Source: Clostridia bacterium (GTDB taxonomy: Bacteria > Bacillota > Clostridia > UMGS1883 > UMGS1540). From it: DNA of 64,000 nucleotides. Shown here one piece after another: positions 5,677-63,068 of the stretch. Every line of letters begins with the position of its first letter. Within the stretch, counting starts at the first letter, position 1. The stretch is taken from positions 10,083 to 74,082 of the forward strand of contig JAFSCR010000030.1 of the NCBI GenBank assembly GCA_017436645.1, read 5' to 3'. The notes under the pieces are model-generated. The model was not told the origin of the DNA, did no database searches, and saw nothing but the letters and a program-made list of their open reading frames with translations. Both the position numbers and the translations under genes were made by a program.

Positions 5677-7089
5677 TCATTTTTTCGGCAGCGTAAAGGT
5701 GAAACGGGTATATTCTCCGGGACTGCTTTCTGCGCTGATTTTGCCGCCATGGAGAACAATAATATTGCGGACGAGATACAGACCGAGACCTACCCCTGTC
5801 TTGTCTTTTCCACGGCTGCGGTCCGTTTTATAAAATTTATCCCAGATCAGTTTTAAATCCTCTTTTTCAATGCCGTCACCGCTGTTTTCCACGGAAACGG
5901 TAATGGAGGAATCTGCCTGTTTTACCGAAAGACGGACGTAGCCGCCTTCCCGATTAAACTTTAAAGCATTATCAAAAAGATTAATGAACACACGGTCAAG
6001 TGCATCCTTATCGGCCACAATGGGACAGCTTTCCCGGTCAAACGCTATGTCCGCATCAATATTTTTCTCTGTAAATACATTTTCAAACCGCAAAATAGAA
6101 ATACGAATCAGTTCGTTTAAATCAAATGCGGTTTTGTTCAGCTGCAAGCCTTCTTCCATACGGGCAACGAGCAAAAGCTCATTTACAAGCCGTGCCAGCC
6201 GCTTCGTTTCCGAAAGTACGATGGAAAGATATTCCTTGTGTCGCTCGGGCGGGATGGTGTTATCGAGAATGCCTTCAATAAAACCGGAAATGGTCGTCAT
6301 GGGTGTGCGGAGCTCATGGGAAACACTTGCAATAAATCCCGTACGCATATCCTCCAGCTTTTTGAGAGAATAGGTCATCTGATTGAACGTGTCACTTAAA
6401 GCGGCAAGCTCGTTATCGCCCTGCACGGGAACCACAACGGAAAAATCGCCCTTCATAATGGATTTTGCCGCATTTGCAATGTTTTTAAGCGGTTTTGAGA
6501 TGCGGCGGGAAATAAAGTAGGAAATGAGGCATGAAAGGGGAAATGTTAAAAGAATGGCACACAAAACGGTGCGGAAAATATTGTTGCGGTACATATTAAT
6601 ATGGGGCATGGGTACCGCCAAACAAGATACGGCAGGTGTTTCACCGTGATAGGAAATCGGTGCGGAGACCAGAAGATAGGTGTCCGGAAAGAAATGCCCG
6701 AAATGCCCAAGCTGTGCACGTTTCCCTTCAAAGAGGCGGCTTATCTGGGACGAGGGCATGGTGCCTTGTATATGCCCCGGAAGATTGCGGGAGCCTGACA
6801 GGATTTTGCCGCTTCTTTCCATAATAAACACAATGCCGCCTGTTCGCTGTGCTGCCTTATTGATGCTCATTTCATAAAACGATGCGGTCTCGGGGGAAGG
6901 ATTGTCCTGATAAAATACGGTAAGCTCGCTGATGTGTACTGCTTCCTCCGTCAGGGCCGCCTTTTTTTCATCAATGAAATAATTGCCGAAAAAGGCAAAT
7001 AAAATAGTGCCCAGAACCAAAACACAACTGGCAACAATTAAAAAATTGGAAACGAGAATCCGCCCGAAAATGGTTTTCGTTTTAAACAA
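5677..7089 (-). CDS. two-component sensor histidine kinase (2 TM, HAMP, HisKA, HATPase_c)
   Basis: The H-box SHELRTPMTTISGFIEGILD is followed by N, G1 and G2 boxes (GGKISAESSPGEYTRFTF). It overlaps the response regulator gene by 8 nt. Confidence 0.9.
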   Translation of the reverse strand: MFKTKTIFGRILVSNFLIVASCVLVLGTILFAFFGNYFIDEKKAALTEEAVHISELTVFYQDNPSPETASFYEMSINKAAQRTGGIVFIMERSGKILSGSRNLPGHIQGTMPSSQISRLFEGKRAQLGHFGHFFPDTYLLVSAPISYHGETPAVSCLAVPMPHINMYRNNIFRTVLCAILLTFPLSCLISYFISRRISKPLKNIANAAKSIMKGDFSVVVPVQGDNELAALSDTFNQMTYSLKKLEDMRTGFIASVSHELRTPMTTISGFIEGILDNTIPPERHKEYLSIVLSETKRLARLVNELLLVARMEEGLQLNKTAFDLNELIRISILRFENVFTEKNIDADIAFDRESCPIVADKDALDRVFINLFDNALKFNREGGYVRLSVKQADSSITVSVENSGDGIEKEDLKLIWDKFYKTDRSRGKDKTGVGLGLYLVRNIIVLHGGKISAESSPGEYTRFTFTLPKK

Positions 7090-7914: not shown

Positions 7915-8430
7915 ATGCCGCTCTTTTTTCACGTTCCTACGTTCATGCCGATGATTATAGGTGAAATCAGGCGGTATCTTCGGGATAATAATGCCATCCG
8001 TGTCAGCCGTTCTCTGCGGGACACGGCATACCGTGCTCTCTCCGTAAAAGAGCGCCTTTCCAAGGAAAAGGAGCCCACGGTGGAGGATATTGCACGGGAG
8101 ATGGGCATTAAAAAAGAAGAAGTTGTGTTCGCACTTGATGCAATCCTCGATCCGGTTTCCCTTTTTGAACCGGTATATCATGACGGCGGTGATGCGCTGT
8201 ATGTGATGGATCAGGTGAGTGACACACGCAGTACCGACGAAAACTGGACCGAAACCATTGCGCTGAAGGAAGCCATGCGAAGGCTTTCGGAACGGGAAAA
8301 GCTTATTTTGAATCTTCGCTTTTTCCAAGGGCGGACTCAGATGGAAGTGGCGGAGGAAATCGGCATCTCTCAGGCACAGGTTTCAAGGCTTGAAAAAAGT
8401 GCGCTGGAGGATATGCGCCGACATATTTAA
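7915..8430 (+). CDS. sigG: sporulation sigma factor SigG-like protein lacking the N-terminal regions 1.2-2.3 (only regions 2.4/3/4 are encoded)
   Basis: The 171-aa product is near-identical in pattern to the C-terminal two thirds of Bacillus SigG (PMIIGEIRRYLRDNNAIRVSRSLRD ... RFFQGRTQMEVAEEIGISQAQVSRLEKSAL). An in-frame stop lies at 7834-7836, so no longer N-terminus is possible. Confidence 0.7.
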   Translation: MPLFFHVPTFMPMIIGEIRRYLRDNNAIRVSRSLRDTAYRALSVKERLSKEKEPTVEDIAREMGIKKEEVVFALDAILDPVSLFEPVYHDGGDALYVMDQVSDTRSTDENWTETIALKEAMRRLSEREKLILNLRFFQGRTQMEVAEEIGISQAQVSRLEKSALEDMRRHI

Positions 8431-21232: not shown

Positions 21233-21235
21233 AGA

Positions 21236-21270
21236 AGAGGGTGTAAATTTTACACCCTCTTTTTTATTTG
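21236..21270. terminator. bidirectional terminator hairpin
   Basis: aagagggtgtaaattttacaccctctt with flanking A/T runs. Confidence 0.6.
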
Positions 21271-21767
21271 GCTTCTACAATTTTAATATTTGCGGCCGGA
21301 ATGCCTGTTTGCCCTGTGATAATGTCCACAATTTTGGCAACATCCGCCTCTTCCAGTTTTTCCGCTTTCACGATGACGGTGGCACTTTCATCATGAATAT
21401 ATACAACCGCATCGGAAAAGCCTTTGGCCATAATCATGCTTTCCACGCTGGATTCTGTTTCGGAAAGGCGGGAAAGCTTTACCATTTCCGCCTCTGCCAT
21501 GGCACGTCCTTCTGCACTTGTGGAAGTATCCTGTACCATGGTCTGGAGAGAGGCAACGCTTTGCGACCTGCCGATTTCACGTTCCAGCCTTGCTTCGCTG
21601 AAGAAATCTGACGTGTCCGAACTGTCATTGCTAACAAGACGGACCTCTCCGAGCGTTTCACCCGGGCCGTTTTCTGAATTTCCGTAGGAAAAATTCAGAT
21701 ACCCTGCAATCGCCACCATGGCGGCAATCCCGACAATGAGGACTTGTTTCTTTTTCAGTACAACCAT
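21264..21767 (-). CDS. spoIIIAH: stage III sporulation protein AH
   Basis: It is the last gene of the spoIIIA operon. It has an N-terminal TM helix, an acidic linker and a C-terminal YscJ/FliF-like domain. Confidence 0.8.
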   Translation of the reverse strand: MVVLKKKQVLIVGIAAMVAIAGYLNFSYGNSENGPGETLGEVRLVSNDSSDTSDFFSEARLEREIGRSQSVASLQTMVQDTSTSAEGRAMAEAEMVKLSRLSETESSVESMIMAKGFSDAVVYIHDESATVIVKAEKLEEADVAKIVDIITGQTGIPAANIKIVEAK

Positions 21768-21783
21768 CTAAACCATCCTTTCT

Positions 21784-22260
21784 TTATTTCAAAGGGAATA
21801 CTGCAATGCTGTATGGCGGGGCACCGGAAAGCGCACCGACAGCGGACAGAATATCCGCACGGACGCTTTTGCTTTTTGCACCCTCTGCCACAACAATTAC
21901 GCCCCGCACTCTGGGGCTGATTTCTTTTGTGGCAGCAACTTTGGCGGAAGAGCCGGAGCCTAAAGTTACCACGGAATCCGAATCGCCGTGAGAGTTTACG
22001 GCGGGCACGGTTTCAGGGCCGGTCTCATATGTGACTGCCACCCGCACCTTGCCCACGCCTTGTATATTGGATAATATACGCTCAAGCTTTTTTTCAAGAA
22101 TCTGACCGTCCGGCGGGGACGTGGAAATGCTTTCCGTTTTTTCTTTTGGACTGCAACCGGCAAACGCCAATAACAGGATACAGATACTTACTATGCCGTA
22201 AAGGAGATAAATATTCTTCTTTTTCGAGAAAAAAGTTTCCGCATTATCGAATTTCCACAC
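21784..22260 (-). CDS. spoIIIAG: stage III sporulation protein AG
   Basis: An N-terminal TM helix and the C-terminal RGVIVVAEGAKS motif are typical of SpoIIIAG. Confidence 0.85.
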   Translation of the reverse strand: MWKFDNAETFFSKKKNIYLLYGIVSICILLLAFAGCSPKEKTESISTSPPDGQILEKKLERILSNIQGVGKVRVAVTYETGPETVPAVNSHGDSDSVVTLGSGSSAKVAATKEISPRVRGVIVVAEGAKSKSVRADILSAVGALSGAPPYSIAVFPLK

Positions 22261-22663
22261 AGCTTCTTGGCACCTCCAGTTCTATTGTAATATAATGCAT
22301 CATGCGATTTGTAACGTTTCCCGAAAGAACAATGCGGGAAACGGAGAAATTTTTGCCCAGGGAAACTTCTGCAGTAGCATCGCCGAATTTTTCTATGGAA
22401 GCCTCTATACGGCGGACATATTCTTCGGCCACCTTCGTTTCAAAGGCATGTTCGGATGCGGCTGCTTCCACTTGGGGGAGAAGGTCGTAAAGCGCCTCGC
22501 CGCCGCCACTAAAAAGAGAAATGCATGGCAGAAGAACGGATGCGGTGACGGCAAGGGATAAAAGCGGTGCGGCAAACCGACGGACCTTGCCCGCAGGCAG
22601 CAGAAATTCAAAAACAGCACTGAAAAGCGAAATGGAAAGTAACCTTAAAAGATAAGCTCTCAC
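22244..22663 (-). CDS. spoIIIAF: stage III sporulation protein AF
   Basis: The product has two N-terminal TM helices and a soluble C-terminal domain, and sits at the expected operon position. Confidence 0.8.
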   Translation of the reverse strand: MRAYLLRLLSISLFSAVFEFLLPAGKVRRFAAPLLSLAVTASVLLPCISLFSGGGEALYDLLPQVEAAASEHAFETKVAEEYVRRIEASIEKFGDATAEVSLGKNFSVSRIVLSGNVTNRMMHYITIELEVPRSCVEIR

Positions 22664-23769
22664 CTTAGCATCACCCCCATGTCACCTATGCGGAGAAGCA
22701 TCCCTACGGAAAGCATGGAAAGCATACCTGCCGCCGCCGTCATGCCCGAGAGGGCAGAGAGCATATCCGCCATGTCGGAAAAGGCCGAAGAGATACGTGT
22801 ATCAGCGGCGGTGCTTGACAGGGCGGCAGCCAGACGATAGGCAAAGGAATGGAGAATGGTTTTTATAACGGGATATAATGTGAGAAGGAGAATGAGAAGC
22901 ATGCCGGCACCCCCTGCTGCATTTTTAACGGTCAAGGCGCTGAAACTGACGGCTTCCGCCGACTCGGACAATATGCCGCCAAGGACCGGAACAAGACTGC
23001 CAACGGCAAATTTGATGCCCTTTGCCGCCACACCGCCCAAAGTGCCGGCGGCATACCCCGTTACGCTGATGACAGCCCCGAAAACCGTCAGGCTTCCCGT
23101 CACAACAAAAAATGCACACTTTCTGATGAGGGCGGAAAGCTTTCTGAGAACGGTATGGGAGGAAAGACCGGAAATCACCGAAAGGGAGAGAGAAACATAA
23201 AGGGAGGGAATCCCGATGCGGGAAAGAAGGAGCGAGGAAGCGGAAGAGGCAGCCAGAAGAAGGGGGTGCACCGCTGCGGCGCCACCGCCCGTACCGACAG
23301 ACAAAACGGCCAGCGAAGGCATAACCGAATTTGTAAATGCGGCCATGTCCTGCGAAAATCCGCGTGCCAGCTCTGCCGCATCGCCTACCGCTGCAATCGC
23401 AAGGCCAATGGATGCGGCATACGTGATTAAAAATGCCATTTCCGAAGTACTGCCATCACCGCCGAGCCGCCCGAGAAGGCTGCAAAGCACCGCAACGGCT
23501 GCCGCTGTGAGGGGAACAGAGAGGCTTGTGCCTGCTTCCTGAAAGAAAAACGAAACGAGGCCGTTCCAAAGACGGTGCAGAAAGCCTGCGTCACTGTTTT
23601 CAGACAGAGATTGTACCGCCGAGCGGAAGTCAAAATCCGGCATGACAGACTGAATTTGTGCCTGCCCCCGGGGACTGAGACCGTCGGCAGCATTGTATAT
23701 TTCTTCTTCGGCTGTGGCCGAGAGGGGGAAAAGACAAACAAGAAGTAAAGCAATAAATATTTTTCGCAT
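22660..23769 (-). CDS. spoIIIAE: stage III sporulation protein AE (polytopic membrane protein with a signal peptide)
   Basis: It has a signal peptide and multiple TM helices and sits at the expected operon position with a 4-nt overlap. Confidence 0.85.
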   Translation of the reverse strand: MRKIFIALLLVCLFPLSATAEEEIYNAADGLSPRGQAQIQSVMPDFDFRSAVQSLSENSDAGFLHRLWNGLVSFFFQEAGTSLSVPLTAAAVAVLCSLLGRLGGDGSTSEMAFLITYAASIGLAIAAVGDAAELARGFSQDMAAFTNSVMPSLAVLSVGTGGGAAAVHPLLLAASSASSLLLSRIGIPSLYVSLSLSVISGLSSHTVLRKLSALIRKCAFFVVTGSLTVFGAVISVTGYAAGTLGGVAAKGIKFAVGSLVPVLGGILSESAEAVSFSALTVKNAAGGAGMLLILLLTLYPVIKTILHSFAYRLAAALSSTAADTRISSAFSDMADMLSALSGMTAAAGMLSMLSVGMLLRIGDMGVMLR

Positions 23770-23782
23770 CGTATCCTTCTTT

Positions 23783-24169
23783 CTAGGGGATTACCGTGAT
23801 AACTGTTTCAAAAAACGAAGTGATGAGAGGCAGAGAAATTCCAAGAATAATGAGTTTCCCCGCCATTTCCAGATTTTGTGCAAGAGCGCCCTCGCCTGCA
23901 TCCCGACAAAGTGCCGCCGTACACTCTGTAATAAACGTGATGCCGATTACTTTTAAAAGCGCATCCATAAACGGAATGTGCAGACTGACTTTTTCCGACA
24001 TTGCCTCGGCAAACAGAAATGCATCCCGAAGATAGGGAATTGTATAAAACAGCAAAAGGCATCCGCCTGTAAGGGTGACGGGCACGGCGAGAGGACTTTT
24101 ATACTGTTTTAAAAGAACGGCGGATAATGCCGTGACAACCGAAATGGCGCAAAGCCGCAGGATTTCCAA
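23783..24169 (-). CDS. spoIIIAD: stage III sporulation protein AD
   Basis: The 128-aa product has four TM helices and the SpoIIIAD pattern. Confidence 0.85.
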   Translation of the reverse strand: MEILRLCAISVVTALSAVLLKQYKSPLAVPVTLTGGCLLLFYTIPYLRDAFLFAEAMSEKVSLHIPFMDALLKVIGITFITECTAALCRDAGEGALAQNLEMAGKLIILGISLPLITSFFETVITVIP

Positions 24170-24182
24170 CTTTAAATGCCTC

Positions 24183-24377
24183 CTAAAGACCGAAAATGCT
24201 TTTTATGGTTTCAAAAAGGGTACTGATTTCTTTGACAAGAATCATCAGCACCACGATAAGGCCGGCAAGGGTAGTCAGCATTGCCTGCTCTTCCCGTCCG
24301 CTCCGGACGAGAAGCTGATGCAGAACAGAAACAATAATGCCGATGGCGGCAATGCGAAAAATCAAATCTACGTCCAT
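24183..24377 (-). CDS. spoIIIAC: stage III sporulation protein AC
   Basis: The 64-aa product has two TM helices and begins MDVDLIFRIAAIGI. Confidence 0.85.
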   Translation of the reverse strand: MDVDLIFRIAAIGIIVSVLHQLLVRSGREEQAMLTTLAGLIVVLMILVKEISTLFETIKSIFGL

Positions 24378-24386
24378 ATTCGCTCC

Positions 24387-24869
24387 TTAAAAAAGTAAAA
24401 TCACAACGAGCAGCCCAAGCATCATGCCGCCGCCTGAATATAGGCGGCCGAGCCGTGCAGCATCGAGCTGGGCGGCTGAATAGATTGCCGAAAGCCTTTT
24501 GCGACATGCAGAAAGGTTTTGCAGCTGTCCTCTTTCATCGGTGGCTGTAAGACCGACGCTGAAAACAGAGAGGACCTCCCGTTCCGCTTTTTCCAGATGA
24601 TCTTCTTCTATTGCTTTTGAAAAGGCGGAGCCTATGTCCGTTTCCATTGCAAGACGTGCCGCATTTTGGAAAAGCGGGTCATATCTGCCTGCTTCCGAAA
24701 GGGCGAAGGGGATGGGAGAAAGGCAGGTGCGGATTTCGCCTTCCATGCATAAAAGACCGTCCAAAATTTTACCGAGCCGTGTGGCACGGCTTTTCAGGCG
24801 GACTCGTTTTCCAAGCCCGATGCACCACATACTGCCTATAAGCAGAACAGCCACTGCACACTTTAACAT
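24387..24869 (-). CDS. spoIIIAB: stage III sporulation protein AB
   Basis: The 160-aa product carries a GspF-like domain flanked by an N-terminal and a C-terminal TM helix. Confidence 0.85.
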   Translation of the reverse strand: MLKCAVAVLLIGSMWCIGLGKRVRLKSRATRLGKILDGLLCMEGEIRTCLSPIPFALSEAGRYDPLFQNAARLAMETDIGSAFSKAIEEDHLEKAEREVLSVFSVGLTATDERGQLQNLSACRKRLSAIYSAAQLDAARLGRLYSGGGMMLGLLVVILLF

Positions 24870-24963
24870 GTCACATCACCTCTTTCTGTGACTATCGTAT
24901 GAAGGCCCGTCCCCATTTATGATTAAAAATACGGCTGCCAAAGAAACGAAATCTTGTATTTTG

Positions 24964-24992
24964 TTGACAAAACAATGAACTTACAGTATAAT
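24964..24992 (+). promoter_or_regulatory. sigmaA-type promoter (TTGACA-17-TATAAT) for the zinc-ribbon protein gene
   Basis: TTGACAaaacaatgaacttacagTATAAT, followed by RBS AAAGGGGAAA. Confidence 0.5.
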
Positions 24993-25029
24993 AAAATTAG
25001 AAACGCTGAAGAAGAAAGGGGAAATATAT

Positions 25030-26871
25030 ATGTTTTGCAGAAATTGCGGTAATGCCATAGGCGAAGGCGTAAAATTTTGCAACAAGTGCGGCACACGGGT
25101 TTTAACCGAAAGTGCAGCCGAAGAGGTAACGGCTAACGTAGAGGCAGCCATGCCTTCAGAACCCGAAATACCGGAAGCGGCGTCGGCTAAGGTGGAAACG
25201 GTGGTGGAAACGATGCAGCCGCCCATGAATGAAACACCGGAAAAACCGGCAAAAAAGAAAGGCGGATTTAAGACAAAAGCCATTGTTGCATGCATTTTGG
25301 CCGCTGTGATTTTAACAACCTCAGGCCTTGCGGCACTTTTTGTACCGAGCGTGGGGAACTTCTTTGCCAAAACAGTTATGCCTGCCGACAAGTATTTTGC
25401 ATATGTGCAGAAAAACAATGCCGAAACGCTGGCGGCGGACCTTTCGTCCATGATCAGCATGCTTGGTACGAAAAAATATACTATTTCTGCGGCGACAGCC
25501 GATGCGGAAATTACAATTGGTGAAGGCATGAAAGAACTTCTGCGGACGGAGGGTGGTTCCGAAGCGGCAGAAGTCCTCGGCTGGATTCAAACGATTGGCA
25601 TGCACATGGATGCAGACATAACCGGCAACGTATACGGAACAAACAGCAGCGTCAGCATTAATGGTAAAGCATTTATCAATGCCAAAATGATTTGGGATAT
25701 GGAAAGGGGATATATCTATCTTTCTTTACCCGGTATTCAGGACCAGGCATTGCAGCTTTATACAGGTATCACCCTGTCCCAGGCTGATTACGATAAACTG
25801 GCAAGCACAGTAGGCCGCTTTGTCGAGATTGTTCCGGATGAAAAAACTCTTGAAAAAATGCTGACAAGATACATATCCGCAATAACAGACGAGGTAACGA
25901 ATGCGGAGAAGAAATCTGAGACCATCAAGGCAGGCGAGGTTTCCCAGAGAGTTACTCGCATTGATGTGCCCATTACGGAAAAAATGATGGTCAACGTCGC
26001 AAAAGCCGTTCTTGCAGAAGTGAAAAAAGATGGCGATATCAAGGATATTATCAAAAAATTTGATGCACTCGCAGAAGAACTCGGTGTATCCTTTGATGCA
26101 GACAAGGTATGGGATGAACTGGTAGAAGATATTAACGAAACCATGGAAGACCTTAAAGAGGCAGACCCGTCCGCAAAGAAACTGGGCACGCTCAAATGCT
26201 GGGTGGATGCAAGCGGTGACATCGTCGGCCTCGGGTTCCGTGCGGATGAAGTGGAACTGAAGGCATATGCAGTTGAAAAAGGCGATCAGTATGGCGTATA
26301 TATGCTGGCAGATGCAGGCGGAAGAGTATATAAGCTTGACGGTGGCGGTGTCGTTTCCGGCGACAAGCGCAGCGGCGAGTTTAATCTCTCCGTTGGCGGA
26401 AGCAATATCGTAAAGGTGACACTTTCGGATGTTGACGATGCAAAGCTTAAGAATGCAGGACTCTTCAGCGGAAAACTCACCATTGAGCCTGCTGATTCCA
26501 TTAGTGGACTTTTAGGCATGGCGGGCGGCGATGCTGCACGCTACTTAAGAGGTGCAAAGTTTGTACTTACATCGGATATGGTTTCCGATTACGAAGGCAC
26601 GGCTGAAATGGAAGTGCATCTTGGCGGCAAGCATTTTGTCACCATGAAAGTGAATGCAAAAGTCAAGGATGGATCCGGCCTCGTACAGATTCCTGCGGAT
26701 TATACCGGCGAATATGATGCGGAAAGCTGGGCTGCAGGTATGAATCAGGGAGAACTTGGGGCTGCACTTGAGAAGGTAGATGCACCGGAGGAAGTAAAGC
26801 GCAAGTTGGTGGCACCGCCGGCACCGACTGAAACGGAAGTAACATTCGGCACGGGCGTAGCGCTTCCGTAA
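25030..26871 (+). CDS. zinc-ribbon domain membrane protein with a large extracytoplasmic domain (hypothetical)
   Basis: An N-terminal CxxC-x13-CxxC zinc ribbon (CRNCGN...CNKCGT) is followed by a Pro/Glu-rich linker, a single TM helix and an extracellular domain of about 500 aa with no recognisable catalytic motifs. Confidence 0.7.
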   Translation: MFCRNCGNAIGEGVKFCNKCGTRVLTESAAEEVTANVEAAMPSEPEIPEAASAKVETVVETMQPPMNETPEKPAKKKGGFKTKAIVACILAAVILTTSGLAALFVPSVGNFFAKTVMPADKYFAYVQKNNAETLAADLSSMISMLGTKKYTISAATADAEITIGEGMKELLRTEGGSEAAEVLGWIQTIGMHMDADITGNVYGTNSSVSINGKAFINAKMIWDMERGYIYLSLPGIQDQALQLYTGITLSQADYDKLASTVGRFVEIVPDEKTLEKMLTRYISAITDEVTNAEKKSETIKAGEVSQRVTRIDVPITEKMMVNVAKAVLAEVKKDGDIKDIIKKFDALAEELGVSFDADKVWDELVEDINETMEDLKEADPSAKKLGTLKCWVDASGDIVGLGFRADEVELKAYAVEKGDQYGVYMLADAGGRVYKLDGGGVVSGDKRSGEFNLSVGGSNIVKVTLSDVDDAKLKNAGLFSGKLTIEPADSISGLLGMAGGDAARYLRGAKFVLTSDMVSDYEGTAEMEVHLGGKHFVTMKVNAKVKDGSGLVQIPADYTGEYDAESWAAGMNQGELGAALEKVDAPEEVKRKLVAPPAPTETEVTFGTGVALP

Positions 26872-26936
26872 ACGGATACAATCAATCCATAACAGGGGTC
26901 GGCTTTTTCCGGCCCCTTTTTAAAAGAGGCTACAAG

Positions 26937-27599
26937 ATGAAAATAGAGCATATTCAAAAAAACTATGGCAAAAAAGTAGTGCTGCGGGATATTACCCTTT
27001 CAGCCGAAAAAGGGTCTTGCATCGGCATTCTGGGCGGAAACGGCAGCGGAAAATCCACACTGCTAAATATTCTTGCAGGCGTTCTTCGGACAGATGGTGG
27101 CTCCTTTTCTTATGACGGACATGATTTACTGCGTGATACGGCCTTTCGCACAAAGCATGTTGGTTTTGTGCCGCAAAGTACGCCGCTCATGGAAGAACTT
27201 TCAGCACGGGATAATTTGCGGTTGTGGTATGAAAAAGAGGAAATGGAAGCGTCACTTTCGGACGGGGTTCTTGCCATGCTCGGCATAGGGGATTTCCTGA
27301 AGGTTCGTGTGGAAAAGATGTCAGGCGGCATGAAAAAACGGCTTGCCATTGGCTGTGCGGTGGCGCATAATCCGGATGTTCTTCTTCTGGACGAACCCAG
27401 TGCGGCGCTGGACCTTGTGTGCAAAGAACGGATTGCAACGTACTTAAAATCGTTTAAAGAAGAGGGCGGCATTATTCTTCTGGCTACACATGATGTGCAG
27501 GAACTGCCGCTTTGTGATGCACTCTATATCCTGAAAAACGGCAGGCTTGCGCCTTATGTTTTTGATGGCGATGTACACAGATTGGTGGGTAAACTGTAA
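26937..27599 (+). CDS. ABC transporter ATP-binding protein
   Basis: Walker A GGNGSGKST, the signature motif MSGGMKKRLAI and Walker B LLLDEPSAALD are present. Confidence 0.9.
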   Translation: MKIEHIQKNYGKKVVLRDITLSAEKGSCIGILGGNGSGKSTLLNILAGVLRTDGGSFSYDGHDLLRDTAFRTKHVGFVPQSTPLMEELSARDNLRLWYEKEEMEASLSDGVLAMLGIGDFLKVRVEKMSGGMKKRLAIGCAVAHNPDVLLLDEPSAALDLVCKERIATYLKSFKEEGGIILLATHDVQELPLCDALYILKNGRLAPYVFDGDVHRLVGKL

Positions 27600-28841
27600 A
27601 TGAGAAAAAACGTGTATGCGGCGCTTCAGATAAAGCGTGCATGGAAAATCTATCCGTCAGTTCTCGGCATTACAGCTTTGATGCTTTGCGCTGTTTTGCT
27701 TGTGGGTTCTCTGGCGCTCGGCAGCTTTATAAACGGTGCGGATAAACAGAAGGTGAATATCGGCATTGTCGGAGATATTTCCGATTCCTATCTCGGCGTG
27801 GGCATATATGCGCTCACGAATATGGACAGCTCCCGTTTTTCCATTTCATTTCTGGAGATGGAGGAGAAAGAGGCGCTGGCGGCGTTGGAGGCACGGAAAA
27901 TTACAGGCTATGTCAAGGTGCCGCCTTCCTATATCAGCGGCATTATAAACGGGGAAAACGTGCCGGCAACATTTGTGACCTACGGCGGACCCGAGGGGTT
28001 CGGTTCGGTGATGACAGCAGAAATCACAGGCACGGTATCGGATCTTGTAACGGAATGCCAAAGGGCCATGTACGCCATGCAGGATTTAGCGCATGATGCG
28101 GGAGAAACTGAAGAATTATGGGATAAAGTGAAAACCATAAACATAGAATATATTGATTTTATTTTATCCCGCACAAGCATTTACGAGGTCGAAACGCTCG
28201 GCATCAGGGATGCAGTTTCTATGGGCGGATATTATATTTGCGGCATAATCATTTTCTTCCTTTTATTATGGGGGATTTCTGCCGGTAGGTTTTTTACCGG
28301 ACGAAACCGTCGGGCGGATCGCCATTTTTTTGCACATGGAATGGGCGTGGGCAGGCAAATTCTCAGCGAATATTTTGCCTATTGTTTGATGACCTTCCTG
28401 ACTGTTCTTCTCCTGTCTCTTGTGGCAGGGGCATTGGTAGCACGGCACGATTTCGGTATTCCCGAGCTTTTGGGACGTGGCTTTTTTGCTCCCTTAGGAT
28501 TTGCCTTTGCAATGATTCCGGTTATTCTTATGCTTTCCGCCATGCAGTTTTTTCTTTATGAAACAACAGAGAATACGGTCAGCGCAATCCTCTTGCAGTT
28601 TTTGGCAGCAATCGGAATGGGATATATATGCGGTTGTCTTTATCCCACTACATTTTTTCCGGTGCCATTGCAAAAAATCGGGGCGGCTTTACCTGCCGGC
28701 GTAGGCTTTTCTTATTTACGGCAGAGTCTTTGCGGCATGCCGCGCATCACCGTGTGGTGCGGCGTTTTCGGATATACCGCACTCTTCCTTGTGGCGGCCA
28801 TAGCCGTTCGAAAACACAAAATGGCAGGTGACTGCAGATGA
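27600..28841 (+). CDS. ABC-2 family transporter permease
   Basis: The 413-aa product has an N-terminal TM helix, a large extracytoplasmic loop and a C-terminal bundle of about five TM helices. It is translationally coupled to the ATPase gene. Confidence 0.7.
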   Translation: MRKNVYAALQIKRAWKIYPSVLGITALMLCAVLLVGSLALGSFINGADKQKVNIGIVGDISDSYLGVGIYALTNMDSSRFSISFLEMEEKEALAALEARKITGYVKVPPSYISGIINGENVPATFVTYGGPEGFGSVMTAEITGTVSDLVTECQRAMYAMQDLAHDAGETEELWDKVKTINIEYIDFILSRTSIYEVETLGIRDAVSMGGYYICGIIIFFLLLWGISAGRFFTGRNRRADRHFFAHGMGVGRQILSEYFAYCLMTFLTVLLLSLVAGALVARHDFGIPELLGRGFFAPLGFAFAMIPVILMLSAMQFFLYETTENTVSAILLQFLAAIGMGYICGCLYPTTFFPVPLQKIGAALPAGVGFSYLRQSLCGMPRITVWCGVFGYTALFLVAAIAVRKHKMAGDCR

Positions 28842-29977
28842 AAAAAGTCAGACAAACAGCCCTTTGGTTTTTCATGACTTGCAAGCGGCTGTGCAGAAAG
28901 TACAGTTTTTTGGTTATTCTTTTGATGATTCCAATTTTGTTGCCCCTTGCCAATATGGCTATGCAGGGGGAAAGCGGTGTTTTGAAAATCGCCCTTTCTT
29001 ATGAAGAGGAAGAAAATCCGGGCGCACAGGCCGTTGTTGAAAAACTGAAAAGCGAAAAAAGTGTTCTTTTATATACAGTGTATGAAACGCCCGAAAAAGC
29101 ACAGGAGGCTGTGGAAAACGGGCAGGCAGATGGCGCATGGGTTTTTGCTGAAAATTTTAGCGAGGCGGTGCGGGCGCATGCCGAAAGAAGACGGAGTGCA
29201 CCGCTGGTTACCGTTTTGGAGCGGGAAAGCACAGTGCCGCTGGGCCTTGCACGTGAAAAACTGTATGGCGCCGTGTATCCGCAAATTTCTTATGCAATAT
29301 ATGAGAACTTTGTGCAGAAATCGTTCTCAGCGGATGCGGCAGAAAAAGCGGAAAAGTATTATCTGGACACGGCGCACAGCCGAAGCGTAATTCAAACGGA
29401 AAAATTACACGAATCGAAATCGGCGGCAGAAACAAATTATCTTACAGCACCACTTCGGGGACTGCTTTCCGTTTTGATTCTTCTTATAAGTCTTGCATCG
29501 GCGCTGTATTATCTGGAGGACGACTGCCTCGGACGGTATGACCAATTACCCCGACCAAAGCGAATTCTGTCGGCAATCGGTATTTGCACGGCAGGTACCC
29601 TGATGGCCGGCGTGGCCGTTTTTCTGGCACTTTTCGTCAGCGGCATCCATACATCTTTTTGGCGGGAAGCGGCAGCAATGGCGCTTTATGTTCCGGCGGC
29701 GGCCGGTTTTGGCGTAGCTGTGGCGATGCTGTTTAAAAGCACGGTGCGATTCGGTGCCTGTATTCCTTTTATAATAATAGGAAGTATTGCATTGTCACCC
29801 ATCTTCTTTCATGTCAAGACGCTTCCGCTGCTTCGTGTCCTTTTGCCGACAACATATTATCTGAAAGCAATACATGACATCCGATACCTTTTGTATATGG
29901 TGATTTACATTGTCTGTGTATTCGGATTTGCGGTCTGTATTTCTGCCTGCAAAAGCAAAATGAGAAAATCACTATAA
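28838..29977 (+). CDS. ABC-2 family transporter permease (second membrane subunit)
   Basis: The 379-aa product has an N-terminal TM helix, an extracytoplasmic loop and a C-terminal polytopic region. It overlaps the previous gene by 4 nt. Confidence 0.65.
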   Translation: MKKVRQTALWFFMTCKRLCRKYSFLVILLMIPILLPLANMAMQGESGVLKIALSYEEEENPGAQAVVEKLKSEKSVLLYTVYETPEKAQEAVENGQADGAWVFAENFSEAVRAHAERRRSAPLVTVLERESTVPLGLAREKLYGAVYPQISYAIYENFVQKSFSADAAEKAEKYYLDTAHSRSVIQTEKLHESKSAAETNYLTAPLRGLLSVLILLISLASALYYLEDDCLGRYDQLPRPKRILSAIGICTAGTLMAGVAVFLALFVSGIHTSFWREAAAMALYVPAAAGFGVAVAMLFKSTVRFGACIPFIIIGSIALSPIFFHVKTLPLLRVLLPTTYYLKAIHDIRYLLYMVIYIVCVFGFAVCISACKSKMRKSL

Positions 29978-35224: not shown

Positions 35225-35253
35225 TTGACAGAAAAGGGAAAATGTGGTATAGT
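35225..35253 (+). promoter_or_regulatory. sigmaA-type promoter for mrp (TTGACA-17-TATAGT)
   Basis: TTGACAgaaaagggaaaatgtggTATAGT, with RBS AAGGAGG before the ATG at 35281. Confidence 0.5.
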
Positions 35254-35280
35254 ATAAAAAGAATTAAGGAGGCGAATACA

Positions 35281-36120
35281 ATGAGTGAATGTTCACACGA
35301 TTGCTCCTCCTGCAGCTCGTCCTGCAGTGAGCGCACGGCTCCCCAGAGCTTTCTGGCGGATCCGCATCCCATGTCCAGCGTAAAGAAGGTTATCGGCATT
35401 GTCAGCGGTAAGGGTGGCGTAGGTAAATCCCTCGTTACAAGCCTTTTGGCAGTCGGTATGCAGAGAAAGGGTTATTCCGGCGCTATTCTCGATGCAGATA
35501 TCACCGGTCCTTCCATCCCGAAAGCGTTTGGCATCAAAGAACGTGCAAAAGCCATTGAATCCGGTCTTTTGCCGGTTGTTACCAAAACGGGTATTGAAAT
35601 TATGTCTTTAAATCTGCTTCTGGAAAACGATACGGACCCTGTGGTATGGCGTGGTCCGGTTATTGCAGGCACAGTCAAGCAGTTCTGGAGCGATGTAATC
35701 TGGGAAGATATTGATTATATGTTTGTAGATATGCCCCCGGGAACAGGCGATGTACCTCTCACGGTATATCAGTCCCTGCCTCTTGACGGCATTGTGGTTG
35801 TTACTTCTCCGCAGGAACTTGTAGGCATGATTGTAGGCAAGGCGGTTCGCATGGCAGAAATGCTTTCCATTCCCATTTTGGGCGTTGTGGAAAATATGTC
35901 TTACTTCGAATGCCCCGATTGCGGCGGCAAACATAGTATCTTCGGTGAGAGCCACGTAGAAGATTTTGCAAAAGAATACGGCATCGAAACAGTTGCCCGC
36001 ATTCCTATGACCCCCGCACTTGCGGCGGCCTGTGACAAGGGTGAAATCGAAACGTTTGATGGGGATTATCTTGCCGCTTTAACGGATAAAATTGAAAAAA
36101 CCGTTAAAATTGAAAAGTAA
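35281..36120 (+). CDS. mrp: Mrp/NBP35 (ApbC) family iron-sulfur cluster carrier ATPase with an N-terminal Cys/Ser-rich extension
   Basis: The N-terminus MSECSHDCSSCSSSCSE precedes a deviant Walker A GKGGVGKS. The ParA/MinD fold and the C-terminal CPDCGG motif are present. Confidence 0.9.
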   Translation: MSECSHDCSSCSSSCSERTAPQSFLADPHPMSSVKKVIGIVSGKGGVGKSLVTSLLAVGMQRKGYSGAILDADITGPSIPKAFGIKERAKAIESGLLPVVTKTGIEIMSLNLLLENDTDPVVWRGPVIAGTVKQFWSDVIWEDIDYMFVDMPPGTGDVPLTVYQSLPLDGIVVVTSPQELVGMIVGKAVRMAEMLSIPILGVVENMSYFECPDCGGKHSIFGESHVEDFAKEYGIETVARIPMTPALAAACDKGEIETFDGDYLAALTDKIEKTVKIEK

Positions 36121-57771: not shown

Positions 57772-57785
57772 GAGGTGAAAAACGG

Positions 57786-58121
57786 ATGGCTACGGATAAA
57801 AAAGCGTTTGGCAATTTCCTTCGGGAAATGATAAGTCAGACAAAAATATCGCAGGCAGCTTTTTATGAAGCTGTGGGGATTACAAAGCCATATTTTTATG
57901 ACATATTATCCGGCAAAGTCAATCCACCACCACCGGATATACAGTATAAAATGCTTGAAAAATTAACTGTTAATGAAAAACAGCGAAAGCAGTTTTTGAA
58001 CTTGGCTGCTGAGGGACGCAGCGAAATCCCTGCAGACATTGCAAAATTGATTACGGATAATCCGCGGCAGCTTGAAAAAATACGAACAACACTTACAGAA
58101 CTGCTTGTAAAGCAGAGATAG
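57786..58121 (+). CDS. XRE-family HTH regulator (R-M controller C-protein-like)
   Basis: The 111-aa product has an HTH (ISQAAFYEAVGITKPYFYDILSGK). It is the first gene of the R-M cassette and lies immediately downstream of a palindromic operator. Confidence 0.75.
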   Translation: MATDKKAFGNFLREMISQTKISQAAFYEAVGITKPYFYDILSGKVNPPPPDIQYKMLEKLTVNEKQRKQFLNLAAEGRSEIPADIAKLITDNPRQLEKIRTTLTELLVKQR

Positions 58122-58131
58122 GAGGATAGAT

Positions 58132-60234
58132 ATGGCGGCATTACAAGAGCTTATTGCAAAAATAGAAAACCCGGAGCTTCGTGCGCAGATACAGGAAGCA
58201 GCTGACAAGGCATTAAAGCGCAAACAGTTCGGACTTGTATTCGAGGAACACCTGCCAGAATGTACTCCTCTTCACGACGTCCCCGTAAGAAAAGGAAAGC
58301 GTGTATCTCTGAAGACAGGCAAGGTAAGCGAAACTTATAAAGTATTGGAAATTCAAGGAGACAAAGCAATCTGTTTACCAAAGGACAGCAATGAGGCTGT
58401 TGAATTTTCGATAGATGACCTTGTTGTAACGGCAGAATTTGGTGAACCAATCTACCCCTGCTTGAAGCCTCTTGGCGAAGTGTGCAACGCGCCGGACAGC
58501 GAACTTTGGCATACTCTTATTGAGGCAGATAATTATCATGCGCTCCAGCTTCTTGAATATCTTTATGGCGGCAAGGTGGATTGCATTTATATCGACCCTC
58601 CCTATAATACAGGAGCAAAAGACTGGAAATACAATAATGATTACGTAGACGGAACCGATGAATATAGGCACAGCAAGTGGTTATCATTTATAAAAAAGCG
58701 TCTTGAAATTGCAAAACGCCTATTAAACCCAGAAAGTTCAGTGTTATTTATTACAATTGATGACAAAGAATATTTGCATTTGGGTTGCTTATTGGAAGAT
58801 ATGTTTCCAGAAGCAAGAATTCAAATGATAAGCGATGTAATTAATCCAAAAGGGACTATGCAAAGAAAAAAGTTTCCAAGAACAGACGAATACATTTTCT
58901 GTGTATGGCTTGGAGAAGCAGAACCAACCGAATTAACCCTTTCGAAGGATTGGTTAATTGGTGATGCTGATAATACTAATCGCAACAGGTATAGATGGGT
59001 TACATTCATAAGAACGGCCCCAAATGTTAGCAGAAGCAAAACTCCTTCTATGTTTTATCCAATATTTGTAAACAAGGAAGGAACAAAAATTATTAGAGTA
59101 GGTGAATCATTAGGCAAGGAAGTTGATTATCAAACGATAAAACCGCAAGAAGGAGAATGTGTTCTATTTCCGATTAACTCTCAAGGGCGTGAGGTAATTT
59201 GGCATTTGACACAAACCTCCTTAATGGAAGCATATTCAAAAGGATTCGTGAAATTGAGCGGAATTACAAAAAACGGAGTTAGTATTTCATATTTGCCTTC
59301 TGGAATGCAAAAAAAGATTTCAGATGGTGATATACCAATCTTAGGGTATGATGAAAATGGCGCTGTTATTTTTGATGCATCTGATTATGCTCCGCAATTT
59401 ATGCCTGGTACACAGTGGAGAATAAAAACACATGATGCAACAGAACACGGAACGAAATTATTACAGAAATTAATAGGCAACAGATTTTCTTATCCCAAAT
59501 CCTTGTATTCAACCAAAGATTGTATTAACTTTTTTCTGTGTAATAAGCCTAATGCGTTGATTGTGGATTTTTTTGCTGGCTCAGGAACAACTCTCCATGC
59601 AATCAACCTCCTAAATGCAGAGGACGGAGGCAACCGACGTTGTATAATGGTAACAAACAATGAGGTTTCAGGAGACGAAGCGAAGACATTAACAGCAAAA
59701 GGACTTAAGCCAGGGGATAAAGAATGGAATAACCTCGGTATAGCTCGCTATGTCACATGGCCTCGCACAGTATGTTCTATAGAAGGACATGACGTAAACG
59801 GTAATCCGTTAAAGGGGAATTACATAGGAAGTGATATTCCTATGGCAGACGGATTCAAAGCGAACGCCGCTTTCTTCAAATTAGGTTTCCTTGATAAAAC
59901 AAAGGTTTCACTCGGTATGCAGTTCAAAGAACTTCTATCAACCTTGTGGATGAAGGCAGGAGCAATCGGCAGATGTCCTGTCGTTGATGCAACTGTGCCG
60001 GATATGCTGATTCTGCCGGAAAATAAGATGGCAATTCTCAATGATGAAAATCAATTTGGTGTATTTGCAGAAAAACTCGCAGAGCACCCGGAAATTGACG
60101 TTGTATATCTTGTTACAGATTACGAAGGAAGCTTTGTGGCAATGACGCGTGAGCTCCCAGGAAAAACTACATATCAGCTTTATAGAGACTATCTTGATAA
60201 CTTTAGAATTAATGCAGGGAGGAACAGCAGATGA
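58132..60234 (+). CDS. mod: Type III restriction-modification system methyltransferase (Mod, N6-adenine, beta class)
   Basis: Motif IV IYIDPPYNTG precedes motif I DFFAGSGTT, with a variable target-recognition region between them. The N-terminus LLEYLYGGKVD is typical of EcoP15I-like Mod. Confidence 0.88.
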   Translation: MAALQELIAKIENPELRAQIQEAADKALKRKQFGLVFEEHLPECTPLHDVPVRKGKRVSLKTGKVSETYKVLEIQGDKAICLPKDSNEAVEFSIDDLVVTAEFGEPIYPCLKPLGEVCNAPDSELWHTLIEADNYHALQLLEYLYGGKVDCIYIDPPYNTGAKDWKYNNDYVDGTDEYRHSKWLSFIKKRLEIAKRLLNPESSVLFITIDDKEYLHLGCLLEDMFPEARIQMISDVINPKGTMQRKKFPRTDEYIFCVWLGEAEPTELTLSKDWLIGDADNTNRNRYRWVTFIRTAPNVSRSKTPSMFYPIFVNKEGTKIIRVGESLGKEVDYQTIKPQEGECVLFPINSQGREVIWHLTQTSLMEAYSKGFVKLSGITKNGVSISYLPSGMQKKISDGDIPILGYDENGAVIFDASDYAPQFMPGTQWRIKTHDATEHGTKLLQKLIGNRFSYPKSLYSTKDCINFFLCNKPNALIVDFFAGSGTTLHAINLLNAEDGGNRRCIMVTNNEVSGDEAKTLTAKGLKPGDKEWNNLGIARYVTWPRTVCSIEGHDVNGNPLKGNYIGSDIPMADGFKANAAFFKLGFLDKTKVSLGMQFKELLSTLWMKAGAIGRCPVVDATVPDMLILPENKMAILNDENQFGVFAEKLAEHPEIDVVYLVTDYEGSFVAMTRELPGKTTYQLYRDYLDNFRINAGRNSR

Positions 60235-63068
60235 AAATAAATTTAATATCGTTTCAGGACAAGGCTGTTAAAGACCTGCGTAAGAAAATGGCGGTCGCTC
60301 AGAGCAGCTATAAAATAGAAAAAAGCACGCAGGTTGTTTCGCTTCAGGCACCTACAGGTGCAGGCAAAACAATTATTGCAGCAGCGGTTATTGAGGATAT
60401 TTATTTTGGCTCGACACTTGCGGATGGAACTACATTCGACGAACAGCCGGAAGCAATTTTCGTGTGGCTTTCTGACTCGCCGGAGCTCAACACGCAATCA
60501 CGTCAAAAGATTGAGCTTAAAACGAGCAAACTGAAGTATGGTCAGTGCGTGACAATCGAAGACGATTCCTTTGATATGGAAATGCTTGAGGACGGACATG
60601 TTTATTTTCTGAATACACAGACAATAAGTAGAAGCGGCCGACTCACTCAACATTCGGATAATAGACAGTATACAATATGGGAAACTCTTGATAACACCAT
60701 ACAGAACAAATCCGACAGACTGTATTTTATTATCGATGAAGCGCACCGTGGTGCAAAAAGCAAACGCGAAGCAGGCACCGATACCACAATAATGCAGCGC
60801 TTTATCAAAGGGTATGAATATACAGAAAATAATATCAAAAGAAAAATGCGTTCAATGCCTGTCGTTCTTGGCATAAGTGCGACAGCAGAACGTTTTAACA
60901 CTTTGATTAAGAACACCGGCGATGTTGTGCTAAGACAATATGTTGTTACAGCTGATGAAGTCAGAAGCTCCGGCCTTTTAAAAGACAGAATTGTTATCAC
61001 CTATCCGGAAGACCCGACCAAAAACAATGATATGGTGCTTCTGGAAGCAGCCGTGGAAGAATGGCTGAAAAAGTGTAAACGATGGTATCAGTATACTTAC
61101 GAACAGCATTATGCAAACGTTGACCCCGTTCTTGTGGTGCAGGTTTGCAAAGGAAGTGGCGGTGCTGTTTCTGATACCAACCTTGAAGATGTGCTTGCAA
61201 AGATTGAAGAAAAAGCGGGCATTCATTTCAAGGCTGGAGAAGTTGTACATTGCTTCGGAGAAGGAACAACACTTGAATTATGCGGACTTAGTATTCCTCA
61301 TGTGAAAGCATCTGAAATAGTTGATGATCATAAAATCAAGGTGGTTTTCTTCAAGGAAGCATTGTCTACAGGTTGGGACTGTCCGAGAGCAGAAACAATG
61401 ATGTCCTTTGCGGTAAGAAACGACCCGACTTACATTGCACAGCTACTTGGCAGAATGGTGAGAACACCACTTCAAATGCGCGTGCAGCGTGATGAATTCT
61501 TAAACGATGTAAAGCTTTATCTTCCCCATTTTGACAAGGATAACGTTAAAAAGGTTGTAGAGGAACTTCAGAGTAATGAAGGCGGTGACATTCCCACAGA
61601 GATTAACGGTGAATCTTTGGAGGAACCGACTTACATTACATGGACGGTACACACACCTCGTAGAAATCGTCAAAACGAGCAAAACCCGGATCAAATATCA
61701 TTATTTTATGACCAGCTGGCAGAGCAGAATGATAATACTGTTCCATATAATCTCCCGACAGTCGCGAACAATCCTACAAGAGTGTTAAATTCCGGAGACA
61801 ATGTGCCGGAATACATACCACCACAGACGGTTACTGTTCCGGCATCTCCTGTAGCACAGCAACAGACTCCTTTTGAACCGACACCGGCAGGAAAACAGCT
61901 TGAGTTTACTGTAGACATAGACCGAGTTGAAATAATAAACTTTATAAATTCAAAGGGGTATTTGACATATCTTGTAAGACAAGATCGCATAAATGATTAT
62001 TTAAAATCATTGCTCGACCTTGCAACATTGCTGACAATTAATGTCATTTATCAGGGAGCACGTGATGAAGTTATTGACGATATAATAGCTCTCATTCGTG
62101 AATATATTGAAGAATTGCATCACACAGGCAGATACAAAGAACTTGCTGAGCATATTTTGCAGCACAAGTTGTCAGTACAAATATTTGACCCGTTCGGAAA
62201 AGATGTTACAGAAAACTATACCAATGACTTTACTTTGATGTCAGAAACTGACCTTGACAGGCAGTTAAGAAATGCAGATGCCAAAATGGGCAGATATGGT
62301 TTTCCCAATATTTACGGCGGCAGATATTACGATGAAGACAATCCAAATGCTCACAAAATTGATTGTATTCTTTTTGCCGAGGATGAAGCATGCCGAACAA
62401 AGCTGGGTGAGTATGCAAAGGAAAAATTATACGAATTCGTTGCTAAGTTCAGACTCGCAATCGTTAATAAATCCGATGCGTGCAAAAAGAAATATCACGA
62501 CATTCTTGCAGATAGTGATATTGTCAGCGAACAGATTTTTGCTATTCCCGAAAACATCAGTGTAAGAGAAGACCCCGAAGGCAAAGAGTATGAAAACCAT
62601 TTGCTTGCATCTGAAACAACAGGCATTGCAAGAATCAAGTTAAACGGCTGGGAAGCAGACCTTATCGAAGAAGAATCCCGCAGAAATGACTTTGTTTGCT
62701 GGCTCAGAAATCCTGCACGTGCTTCATGGGCACTGTGTTTACCTTACGAAATAGGCGGAGAAAAGAAATCCTTCTATCCGGATTTTCTGATTGTACGCAG
62801 CGATAATGAGCTTGATTATGTCGTTGATATTCTTGAACCTCATGGAAATCAGTATAGCGACAATCTTCCAAAAGCAAAAGCCCTTGCGGAATATGCAAAA
62901 AAGGAAGACCGTATTGGAAGAATACAGCTTATCCATAAGAGCAGCGATGCTGCTGGCGTCAGCCATTTCAGACGTTTGGATTTAACAAACCTTACAGTCC
63001 GTGACAAAGTTCTTCAGGCAATGAATAATGACGAGCTTGATCATATTTTTGATACAGACGGAATATAA
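60231..63068 (+). CDS. res: Type III restriction enzyme Res subunit (SF2 helicase plus C-terminal nuclease)
   Basis: Walker A LQAPTGAGKT, DEAH box IIDEAHRG and motif VI QLLGRMVRTP are present. The C-terminal region has a PD-(D/E)xK-like motif (YPDF...DILEP). It overlaps mod by 4 nt (ATGA). Confidence 0.85.
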   Translation: MKINLISFQDKAVKDLRKKMAVAQSSYKIEKSTQVVSLQAPTGAGKTIIAAAVIEDIYFGSTLADGTTFDEQPEAIFVWLSDSPELNTQSRQKIELKTSKLKYGQCVTIEDDSFDMEMLEDGHVYFLNTQTISRSGRLTQHSDNRQYTIWETLDNTIQNKSDRLYFIIDEAHRGAKSKREAGTDTTIMQRFIKGYEYTENNIKRKMRSMPVVLGISATAERFNTLIKNTGDVVLRQYVVTADEVRSSGLLKDRIVITYPEDPTKNNDMVLLEAAVEEWLKKCKRWYQYTYEQHYANVDPVLVVQVCKGSGGAVSDTNLEDVLAKIEEKAGIHFKAGEVVHCFGEGTTLELCGLSIPHVKASEIVDDHKIKVVFFKEALSTGWDCPRAETMMSFAVRNDPTYIAQLLGRMVRTPLQMRVQRDEFLNDVKLYLPHFDKDNVKKVVEELQSNEGGDIPTEINGESLEEPTYITWTVHTPRRNRQNEQNPDQISLFYDQLAEQNDNTVPYNLPTVANNPTRVLNSGDNVPEYIPPQTVTVPASPVAQQQTPFEPTPAGKQLEFTVDIDRVEIINFINSKGYLTYLVRQDRINDYLKSLLDLATLLTINVIYQGARDEVIDDIIALIREYIEELHHTGRYKELAEHILQHKLSVQIFDPFGKDVTENYTNDFTLMSETDLDRQLRNADAKMGRYGFPNIYGGRYYDEDNPNAHKIDCILFAEDEACRTKLGEYAKEKLYEFVAKFRLAIVNKSDACKKKYHDILADSDIVSEQIFAIPENISVREDPEGKEYENHLLASETTGIARIKLNGWEADLIEEESRRNDFVCWLRNPARASWALCLPYEIGGEKKSFYPDFLIVRSDNELDYVVDILEPHGNQYSDNLPKAKALAEYAKKEDRIGRIQLIHKSSDAAGVSHFRRLDLTNLTVRDKVLQAMNNDELDHIFDTDGI

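Follow-up and report, generated by a model that had tools for sequence, protein, structure and literature searches.

A spoIIIA operon that begins at spoIIIAB, with no spoIIIAA ATPase gene at the locus, in a lineage of uncultured gut Clostridia

The spoIIIA locus and its boundaries

The window, that is, the whole 64-kb stretch of DNA that was analysed, contains seven tightly packed and intact open reading frames on the minus strand, which read spoIIIAB-AC-AD-AE-AF-AG-AH and occupy positions 21264 to 24869 (Table 1). This seven-gene unit is bounded by a sigmaE-type promoter on one side and by a strong intrinsic terminator on the other. The presence of the seven genes had been proposed in a first-pass annotation made from the letters alone. 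It was confirmed here by the reading frames and by Pfam, NCBIfam and structure matches, the match being weak for AF. Homologues of AB, AC, AD, AE and AH follow each other in spoIIIA order, with Pfam scores above the gathering cut-off. In addition, a profile built from the AB proteins of the clade matches the B. subtilis SpoIIIAB structure 6BS9 (E 1.3e-4). The TIGR02830 score of AG lies below the equivalog cut-off, and the corresponding clade profile matches the SpoIIIAG ring structure 5WC3 (E 4e-14); from these two matches, AG was accepted as a SpoIIIAG homologue. The family matches of AF were PF09581, with 23.4 bits for a cut-off of 28.3, and TIGR02896, with an E value of 1e-4 over the N-terminal 78 aa only. 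The clade AF profile gave no match in the PDB. The AE protein of the window is a 100% match to a protein from an NCBI rumen metagenome-assembled genome (MAG) ("Clostridia bacterium", locus tag IJN74_07590). As regards the forespore partner SpoIIQ, no M23/LytM gene was noted among the window reading frames scanned.

Table 1. Features of the spoIIIA locus and of the sigG genes. Positions refer to the window unless another sequence is named.
Feature	Position	Strand	Description
spoIIIAB	24387-24869	-	160 aa, first gene of the operon; PF09548 88.8 bits, full model, above cut-off
spoIIIAC	24183-24377	-	64 aa; PF06686 and TIGR02848 (90.5 bits), both above cut-off
spoIIIAD	23783-24169	-	128 aa; two PF06686 repeats (SpoIIIAC/AD); TIGR02849 E 2e-21
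spoIIIAE	22660-23769	-	369 aa; PF09546 182.7 bits
spoIIIAF	22244-22663	-	139 aa; assigned by position and clade-wide conservation; family matches weak
spoIIIAG	21784-22260	-	158 aa, GTG start, 17-nt overlap with AF; TIGR02830 E 1.3e-18
spoIIIAH	21264-21767	-	167 aa, last gene of the operon; PF12685 151.9 bits
sigmaE-type promoter	24894-24920	-	-35 ATAAAT (24920-24915), 13-nt spacer with GGAC box, -10 CATACGAT (24901-24894)
Ribosome-binding site GAAAGAGGTGA	24876-24886	-	6 nt 5' of the AB start codon (24869-24867); read from sequence
Intrinsic terminator closing the operon	21235-21261	-	12-bp stem followed by T-run; terminator scan
Divergent sigmaA promoter TTGACA-17-TATAAT	24964-24992	+	12/12 consensus; promoter scan; outside the operon, marks its upstream boundary
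sigG	7915-8427	+	
sigG, L021	12055-12549		
sigG, L024	17220-17735		
sigG, L036	428-1207		

AB is separated from the next gene upstream by exactly 160 nt (24870-25029). As already pointed out in the first-pass annotation, this interval has no room for SpoIIIAA. The gene on its other side (25030-26871) codes for a zinc-ribbon membrane protein (Zn_Ribbon_1 match) and is served by the divergent sigmaA promoter that the annotation had placed there and that the promoter scan recovered. The element ATAAAT-N13-CATACGAT, previously described as sigmaE-like, also stood up to the analysis, the motif being unique in the window and conserved in 12 relatives. At the level of sequence, it has the -35 ATA and the -10 CATAcA-T of a sigmaE-type promoter. 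In both B. subtilis (PMC517825) and C. difficile (PMC3789822), the combination of -35 ATA and -10 CATA at this spacing is the hallmark of sigmaE.

A single copy of the extended motif ATA-N5-GGAC-N7-CATA-N3-W is present in the 64 kb, and none was obtained in 100 shuffles. All 12 relatives carry (C/T)ATA-N5-GGAC-N7-CATA(T/C)A, once per locus, 25 to 35 nt upstream of the AB ribosome-binding site. The same architecture, with the same spacing, lies directly 5' of spoIIIAA in the outgroups L009 and L035. When JGI metagenomes were scanned for exact matches to ATA-N5-GGACAACCGTTCATA, eight were obtained, of which two (L026 and L033) lie directly 5' of a canonical spoIIIAA. No orphan AA behind this promoter and no clade locus was found among the eight. 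Since the same motif precedes canonical spoIIIAA genes, the promoter before AB would be the ancestral spoIIIA promoter, AA having been removed from between the two. The motif ATA-N5-GGAC-N7-CATA is also usable as a marker, or search key, for spoIIIA promoters across distant Clostridia.

The GGAC(AA) box holds a fixed position in the promoter spacer (window, 24902-24914; L009, about 5875-5905; L026, 3185-3207; L033, 1567-1589; L035, about 5955-5985). It is conserved across very distant Clostridia, in some of them as the identical 15-mer GGACAACCGTTCATA. We take this box to fit the SpoIIID consensus, and it is probably a SpoIIID operator. Such a site is consistent with the reported binding and repression of spoIIIA by SpoIIID (PMC517825, PMC3789822). 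Indeed, the B. subtilis spoIIIA promoter is sigmaE-dependent and SpoIIID-repressed, with a SpoIIID footprint that overlaps the -35 (PMC517825), and sigmaE dependence and SpoIIID repression also apply to the C. difficile promoter (PMC3789822).

A SpoIIIAA homologue was sought by tblastn with canonical SpoIIIAA. Only noise was obtained in the 64-kb window (best E value 3.7), and no homologue was detected in the 9.3 kb beyond its left end, which brings the sequence inspected in this genome to about 73 kb. No homologue of SpoIIIAA (PF19568/TIGR02858), canonically encoded at the head of the operon, was detected in the window, L024 or the clade loci. Seven AA queries failed to detect AA in the clade loci L005-L008 and L011-L021, all of them MAGs, over flanks of up to 20 kb around the operon. 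The same queries detected AA in the outgroups L009, L010, L022, L023, L026 and L033, the first four of which display the canonical order AA-AB-...-AH. Four reading frames of the window contain a Walker A motif and correspond to MutS2, an ABC ATPase, shikimate kinase and a Mrp/ParA protein. The neighbouring ABC-transporter ATPase (26937-27599) and the Mrp/ParA ATPase (35242-36120) were considered as substitutes for AA and rejected. Neither family is related to SpoIIIAA, and half of the relatives have no ABC cluster near the operon. Finally, a protein database was searched with canonical SpoIIIAA, and the best 120 of 4597 matches were examined and clustered. Three candidate groups for an orphan AA (P0124, P0134 and P0118) were obtained among these 120, and all three are located in canonical AA-AB-...-AH operons of other lineages.

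Conservation of the layout and of the genes among relatives

Relatives were gathered by contig look-ups and by scanning the GTDB species representatives with the clade AE alignment; the genome of the window is not part of the latter collection. In the database, 28 relatives of the AE protein of the window were found at 47-80% identity, the next match being at 29%. The 5' region of AB is included in 12 lineages, and one more lineage is partial. The operon begins at AB in all 12 species-level relatives, whose SpoIIIAE proteins are 47-95% identical. All are MAGs of uncultured organisms, for the most part from ruminant gut. What lies upstream of AB varies: six lineages have the divergent zinc-ribbon gene there, one has a gene for an SLH protein followed by a terminator, and another has other genes. 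At least seven contigs from independent assemblies (ENA, Logan and NCBI) show the identical junction of zinc-ribbon gene, 160 nt and AB.

The contigs of five relatives stop 200-380 bp upstream of AB, behind one or two divergent sigmaA-type promoters, arranged in tandem, and the sigmaE promoter is still contiguous with AB. Tandem sigmaA promoters are typical of rRNA operons, which metagenome assemblers cannot resolve. These contig ends probably mark an unassembled rRNA operon adjoining the spoIIIA operon. The idea that AA is hidden by the contig breaks was rejected, given the continuity between sigmaE promoter and AB and the position of the breaks behind rRNA-like promoters. The stretches between contig end and AB (L012, 1-335; L005, 1-228; L007/L018, 1-233; L016, 1-270; L020, 1-201) have conserved flanking sequence. 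In L012, the divergent promoters at the contig end read TTGACA-N17-TACAAT and TTGACT-N17-TAATAT.

The seven genes are maintained at nearly constant length. Across lineages, the proteins measure 159-160 aa for AB (12 lineages), 64 for AC, 128-129 for AD, 364-373 for AE, 136-141 for AF (13 lineages), 153-162 for AG and 165-167 for AH. No frameshifts or length changes of AB-AH were found across the 12-13 lineages. The identity of SpoIIIAC within the clade is 73-100%. Over the informative pairs, dN/dS ranged from 0.01 to 0.32 for all seven genes and from 0.10 to 0.32 for AB. In the least saturated pair, L005/L012 (dS 0.2-0.7), it was 0.11 for AB, 0.02 for AC, 0.04 for AD, 0.05 for AE, 0.20 for AF, 0.11 for AG and 0.03 for AH. 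All seven spoIIIA genes, AB included, are under purifying selection. Within the clade, AB evolves faster than any other gene of the operon, with a mean identity of 45% versus 59% for AE, whereas the two diverge about equally in canonical lineages. This difference possibly reflects a mild relaxation of constraint, and not decay.

The sigG gene of the window encodes a 171-aa protein matching positions 92-254 of the 254-position SigG equivalog model (281 bits), which means that regions 3-4 are present and region 2 is not. The gene is preceded by a sigmaA-like promoter of its own, TTGACA-N17-TATACT. The first-pass annotation had cited the truncation together with the missing AA when it raised a recent loss of sporulation as one of two options; as a sign of decay, the truncation does not agree with the comparison. 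Of the 31 closest SigG homologues in the database (77-100% identity), 30 share a start at one position ahead of PMIIGEIRRY; these 30 have 159-178 aa and no Pfam Sigma70_r2 domain. The homologue from L008/L021 is 83-85% identical to that of the window, in a genome whose SpoIIIAE is only 48% identical. The short form was reproduced in seven assemblies, and none of the sequences retrieved contained a coding sequence for region 2. The one full-length homologue (P0169, 259 aa, from relative L036) lies in the same sigG-lipoprotein-amylase synteny as the gene of L021. As the short SigG is clade-wide and strongly conserved, it does not result from decay and provides no evidence for a recent loss of sporulation. 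The protein could belong to a two-piece sigma factor, act as a regulator that consists of just regions 3-4, or come from a gene whose 5' half is elsewhere.

Origin of the layout and fate of the ATPase gene

With considerable confidence, we propose that AB-AH constitutes a complete, self-contained transcription unit and the normal state of a lineage of uncultured gut and rumen Clostridia, in whose ancestor AA would have been excised and its promoter inherited by AB. A clean removal of the AA reading frame, which lay between AB and the ancestral spoIIIA promoter, would have left AB with the sigmaE -35 ATA, the -10 CATA and the GGAC(AA) spacer box. A precise deletion, with or without earlier copying of AA, is favoured, since a rearrangement that split the operon between AA and AB would have kept AA, not AB, behind the promoter. 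By analogy with B. subtilis and C. difficile, the seven genes would be transcribed by mother-cell sigmaE RNA polymerase and the promoter later dampened by SpoIIID, and the seven membrane proteins would form the mother-cell half of the SpoIIIA-SpoIIQ channel. Judged from the sequences, the spoIIIA promoter would be functional, the GGAC(AA) box would bind SpoIIID and the clade would sporulate.

An assembly or binning artefact, in which AA was dropped by misassembly at the 5' end of AB, is barely credible. The five contigs that end shortly upstream of AB might be read in this manner, but they end behind rRNA-type tandem sigmaA promoters with the sigmaE promoter contiguous with AB, and junctions of the same type as in the window are present in L006/L013, L011, L014 and L015. 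Moreover, the recovery of the window junction in at least seven independent assemblies indicates that its layout is not an assembly artefact. A recent loss of sporulation with a decaying locus, which the first-pass annotation had given as its second option from the missing AA and the short sigG, is highly improbable. Both of these features are common to lineages as distant as 47% SpoIIIAE identity, and the short SigG is 83-100% conserved. The hypothesis is also contradicted by the intactness of the seven genes in 12-13 lineages, by dN/dS values far below 1 for all of them, and by the conservation of promoter, ribosome-binding site and terminator. The other possibility raised in the annotation was an unusual organisation with spoIIIAA elsewhere; the unusual organisation itself proved to be real and a trait of the whole clade, the AB-first layout being common to the 12 relatives (all uncultured MAGs). 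Relatives with an AB-first layout are one half of what the annotation had named as refuting its reading, the other half being that such relatives sporulate. As the layout is clade-wide and the genes are intact, it is an old trait of the lineage and not the result of recent decay.

The ATPase activity of SpoIIIAA is treated as the engine of the feeding-tube channel. Its ATPase motifs are essential in B. subtilis, where AB has been proposed to be the GspF-like platform protein of this secretion-type ATPase, and co-immunoprecipitation recovered AB, and not AA, in a membrane complex (PMC2703783). In our opinion, there is an even chance that spoIIIAA is truly gone, the channel working either without a dedicated ATPase (driven by membrane potential, or purely structural) or with a non-homologous one. 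AB would then be retained as a structural part of the membrane complex, a role that it may indeed have, since it was recovered in this complex without AA. A true loss requires a single event, and a simple deletion yields a clean excision with the promoter left at AB. It has a precedent in the Planococcaceae, which form spores without AA (10.1101/2022.02.25.481979); thus AA is not universally required. The faster evolution of AB in this clade is compatible with a partly relaxed constraint, and the SigG of the same clade lacks region 2, so that the late forespore module is already atypical. However, the three genes that Planococcaceae lost along with AA, namely AB, AD and AF, are kept in this clade under purifying selection. 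The essential nature of the AA motifs in B. subtilis also speaks against a loss, and the evidence for absence extends over about 73 kb here and, for the MAG relatives, over 20 kb or less around the operon.

Alternatively, spoIIIAA may have been duplicated or moved to an unlinked locus and the operon copy then deleted, the ATPase acting in trans on AB, and to this we give a chance a little under even. AB keeps the family-wide motifs, its full length and a low dN/dS across deep divergence, and the maintenance under selection of a GspF-like protein, the proposed partner of AA, argues for an ATPase partner somewhere. The same conclusion is favoured by the essential ATPase motifs and by the usually strong conservation of AA; in canonical lineages, AA ranks with the best conserved SpoIIIA proteins, its identity being 41-47% where that of AE is 26-35%. 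An unlinked AA would nevertheless require two events, copying and precise deletion, instead of one. No AA was found within the 73 kb or so inspected here or in the available flanks of the 12 relatives, and none of the three candidate groups whose context was checked proved to be an orphan. It is very unlikely that anything other than a loss or an unlinked copy accounts for the missing ATPase. Tentatively, and as a possibility that we rate below even, we suggest that this deep-branching lineage dispensed with SpoIIIAA and keeps AB-AH as an ATPase-less or differently energised channel from mother cell to forespore; together with the SigG without region 2, the region that binds core polymerase and recognises the -10 element, this would point to a rewired late-forespore programme.

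Comparison with known systems and neighbourhood of the operon

As in the present operon, the canonical spoIIIAA-AH operons of B. subtilis and C. difficile hold the seven membrane-protein genes in this order, behind a sigmaE-type promoter that likely includes a SpoIIID box; their gene junctions are tight or overlapping, and AH is followed by a terminator. They differ from the present one by the gene for the secretion-type ATPase SpoIIIAA, which is missing here, so that the promoter abuts AB. They also have a second promoter upstream of AG, whereas no internal sigmaE promoter with the strict pattern was found at this place in the window. SpoIIIAA resembles the ATPase, and SpoIIIAB the platform protein, of the GspE/GspF (PilB/PilC) pairs of type II secretion and type IV pili (PMC2703783). 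Here, the platform homologue stands without an adjacent ATPase gene and still matches the 6BS9 structure.

Reduced sets of spoIIIA genes have been described. Planococcaceae, which lack AA, AB, AD and AF (10.1101/2022.02.25.481979), show that lineages can lack AA and still sporulate. In contrast, the present locus lacks AA alone, and AB, AD and AF are present and under purifying selection; it does not show the combined loss of AA, AB, AD and AF in which AC, AE, AG and AH are kept. In Erysipelotrichaceae, only AH and SpoIIQ are kept (10.1101/2022.02.25.481979). According to the gene list of Galperin et al., every spore former has all eight spoIIIA genes (PMC3533761), and a survey of engulfment genes contained scattered single genomes in which AA was not detected (PMC7924749). 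A clade-wide absence of AA alone from the operon, with AB-AH and the promoter kept, is not among the reduced sets in these three publications (PMC3533761, PMC7924749, 10.1101/2022.02.25.481979).

A lineage in which seven membrane components are kept under selection and the ATPase gene has been excised from the operon amounts to a natural experiment. A true loss of the ATPase would mean that the membrane complex, of which the GspF-like AB is a part, has a role independent of this ATPase. If the gene is unlinked, this is a rare case of operon splitting in which the promoter was preserved. Predictors of sporulation based on gene signatures would misjudge these abundant rumen and gut MAGs.

Several features of the neighbourhood were also recorded. 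On the plus strand of the window, positions 25030-29977 encode a 613-aa protein (zinc ribbon, transmembrane segment and a large domain without family match), an ABC ATPase and two ABC-2 permeases. This zinc-ribbon/ABC cluster is divergently linked to spoIIIA in six lineages (window, L006/L013, L011, L014 and L015). On the other side of the operon, phage genes lie a few kb downstream of spoIIIAH in L005 (5457-10432), L006 (12584-17110) and L007 (4032-10425). They code for SU10-like portal and adaptor proteins, a Mu-like gpT capsid protein and an amidase, and their position suggests a recurrent site of prophage integration near the 3' end of spoIIIA. At the corresponding place, the window has a gene for a PrsA-like lipoprotein and an aromatic amino-acid operon. 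Further away, a type III-like restriction-modification pair (N6/N4 DNA methylase and Res helicase; 58132-63068, plus strand) is located behind a small HTH gene (57783-58121), and a gene for an MmeI-family enzyme lies just past the left end of the window (L024, 1-1372).
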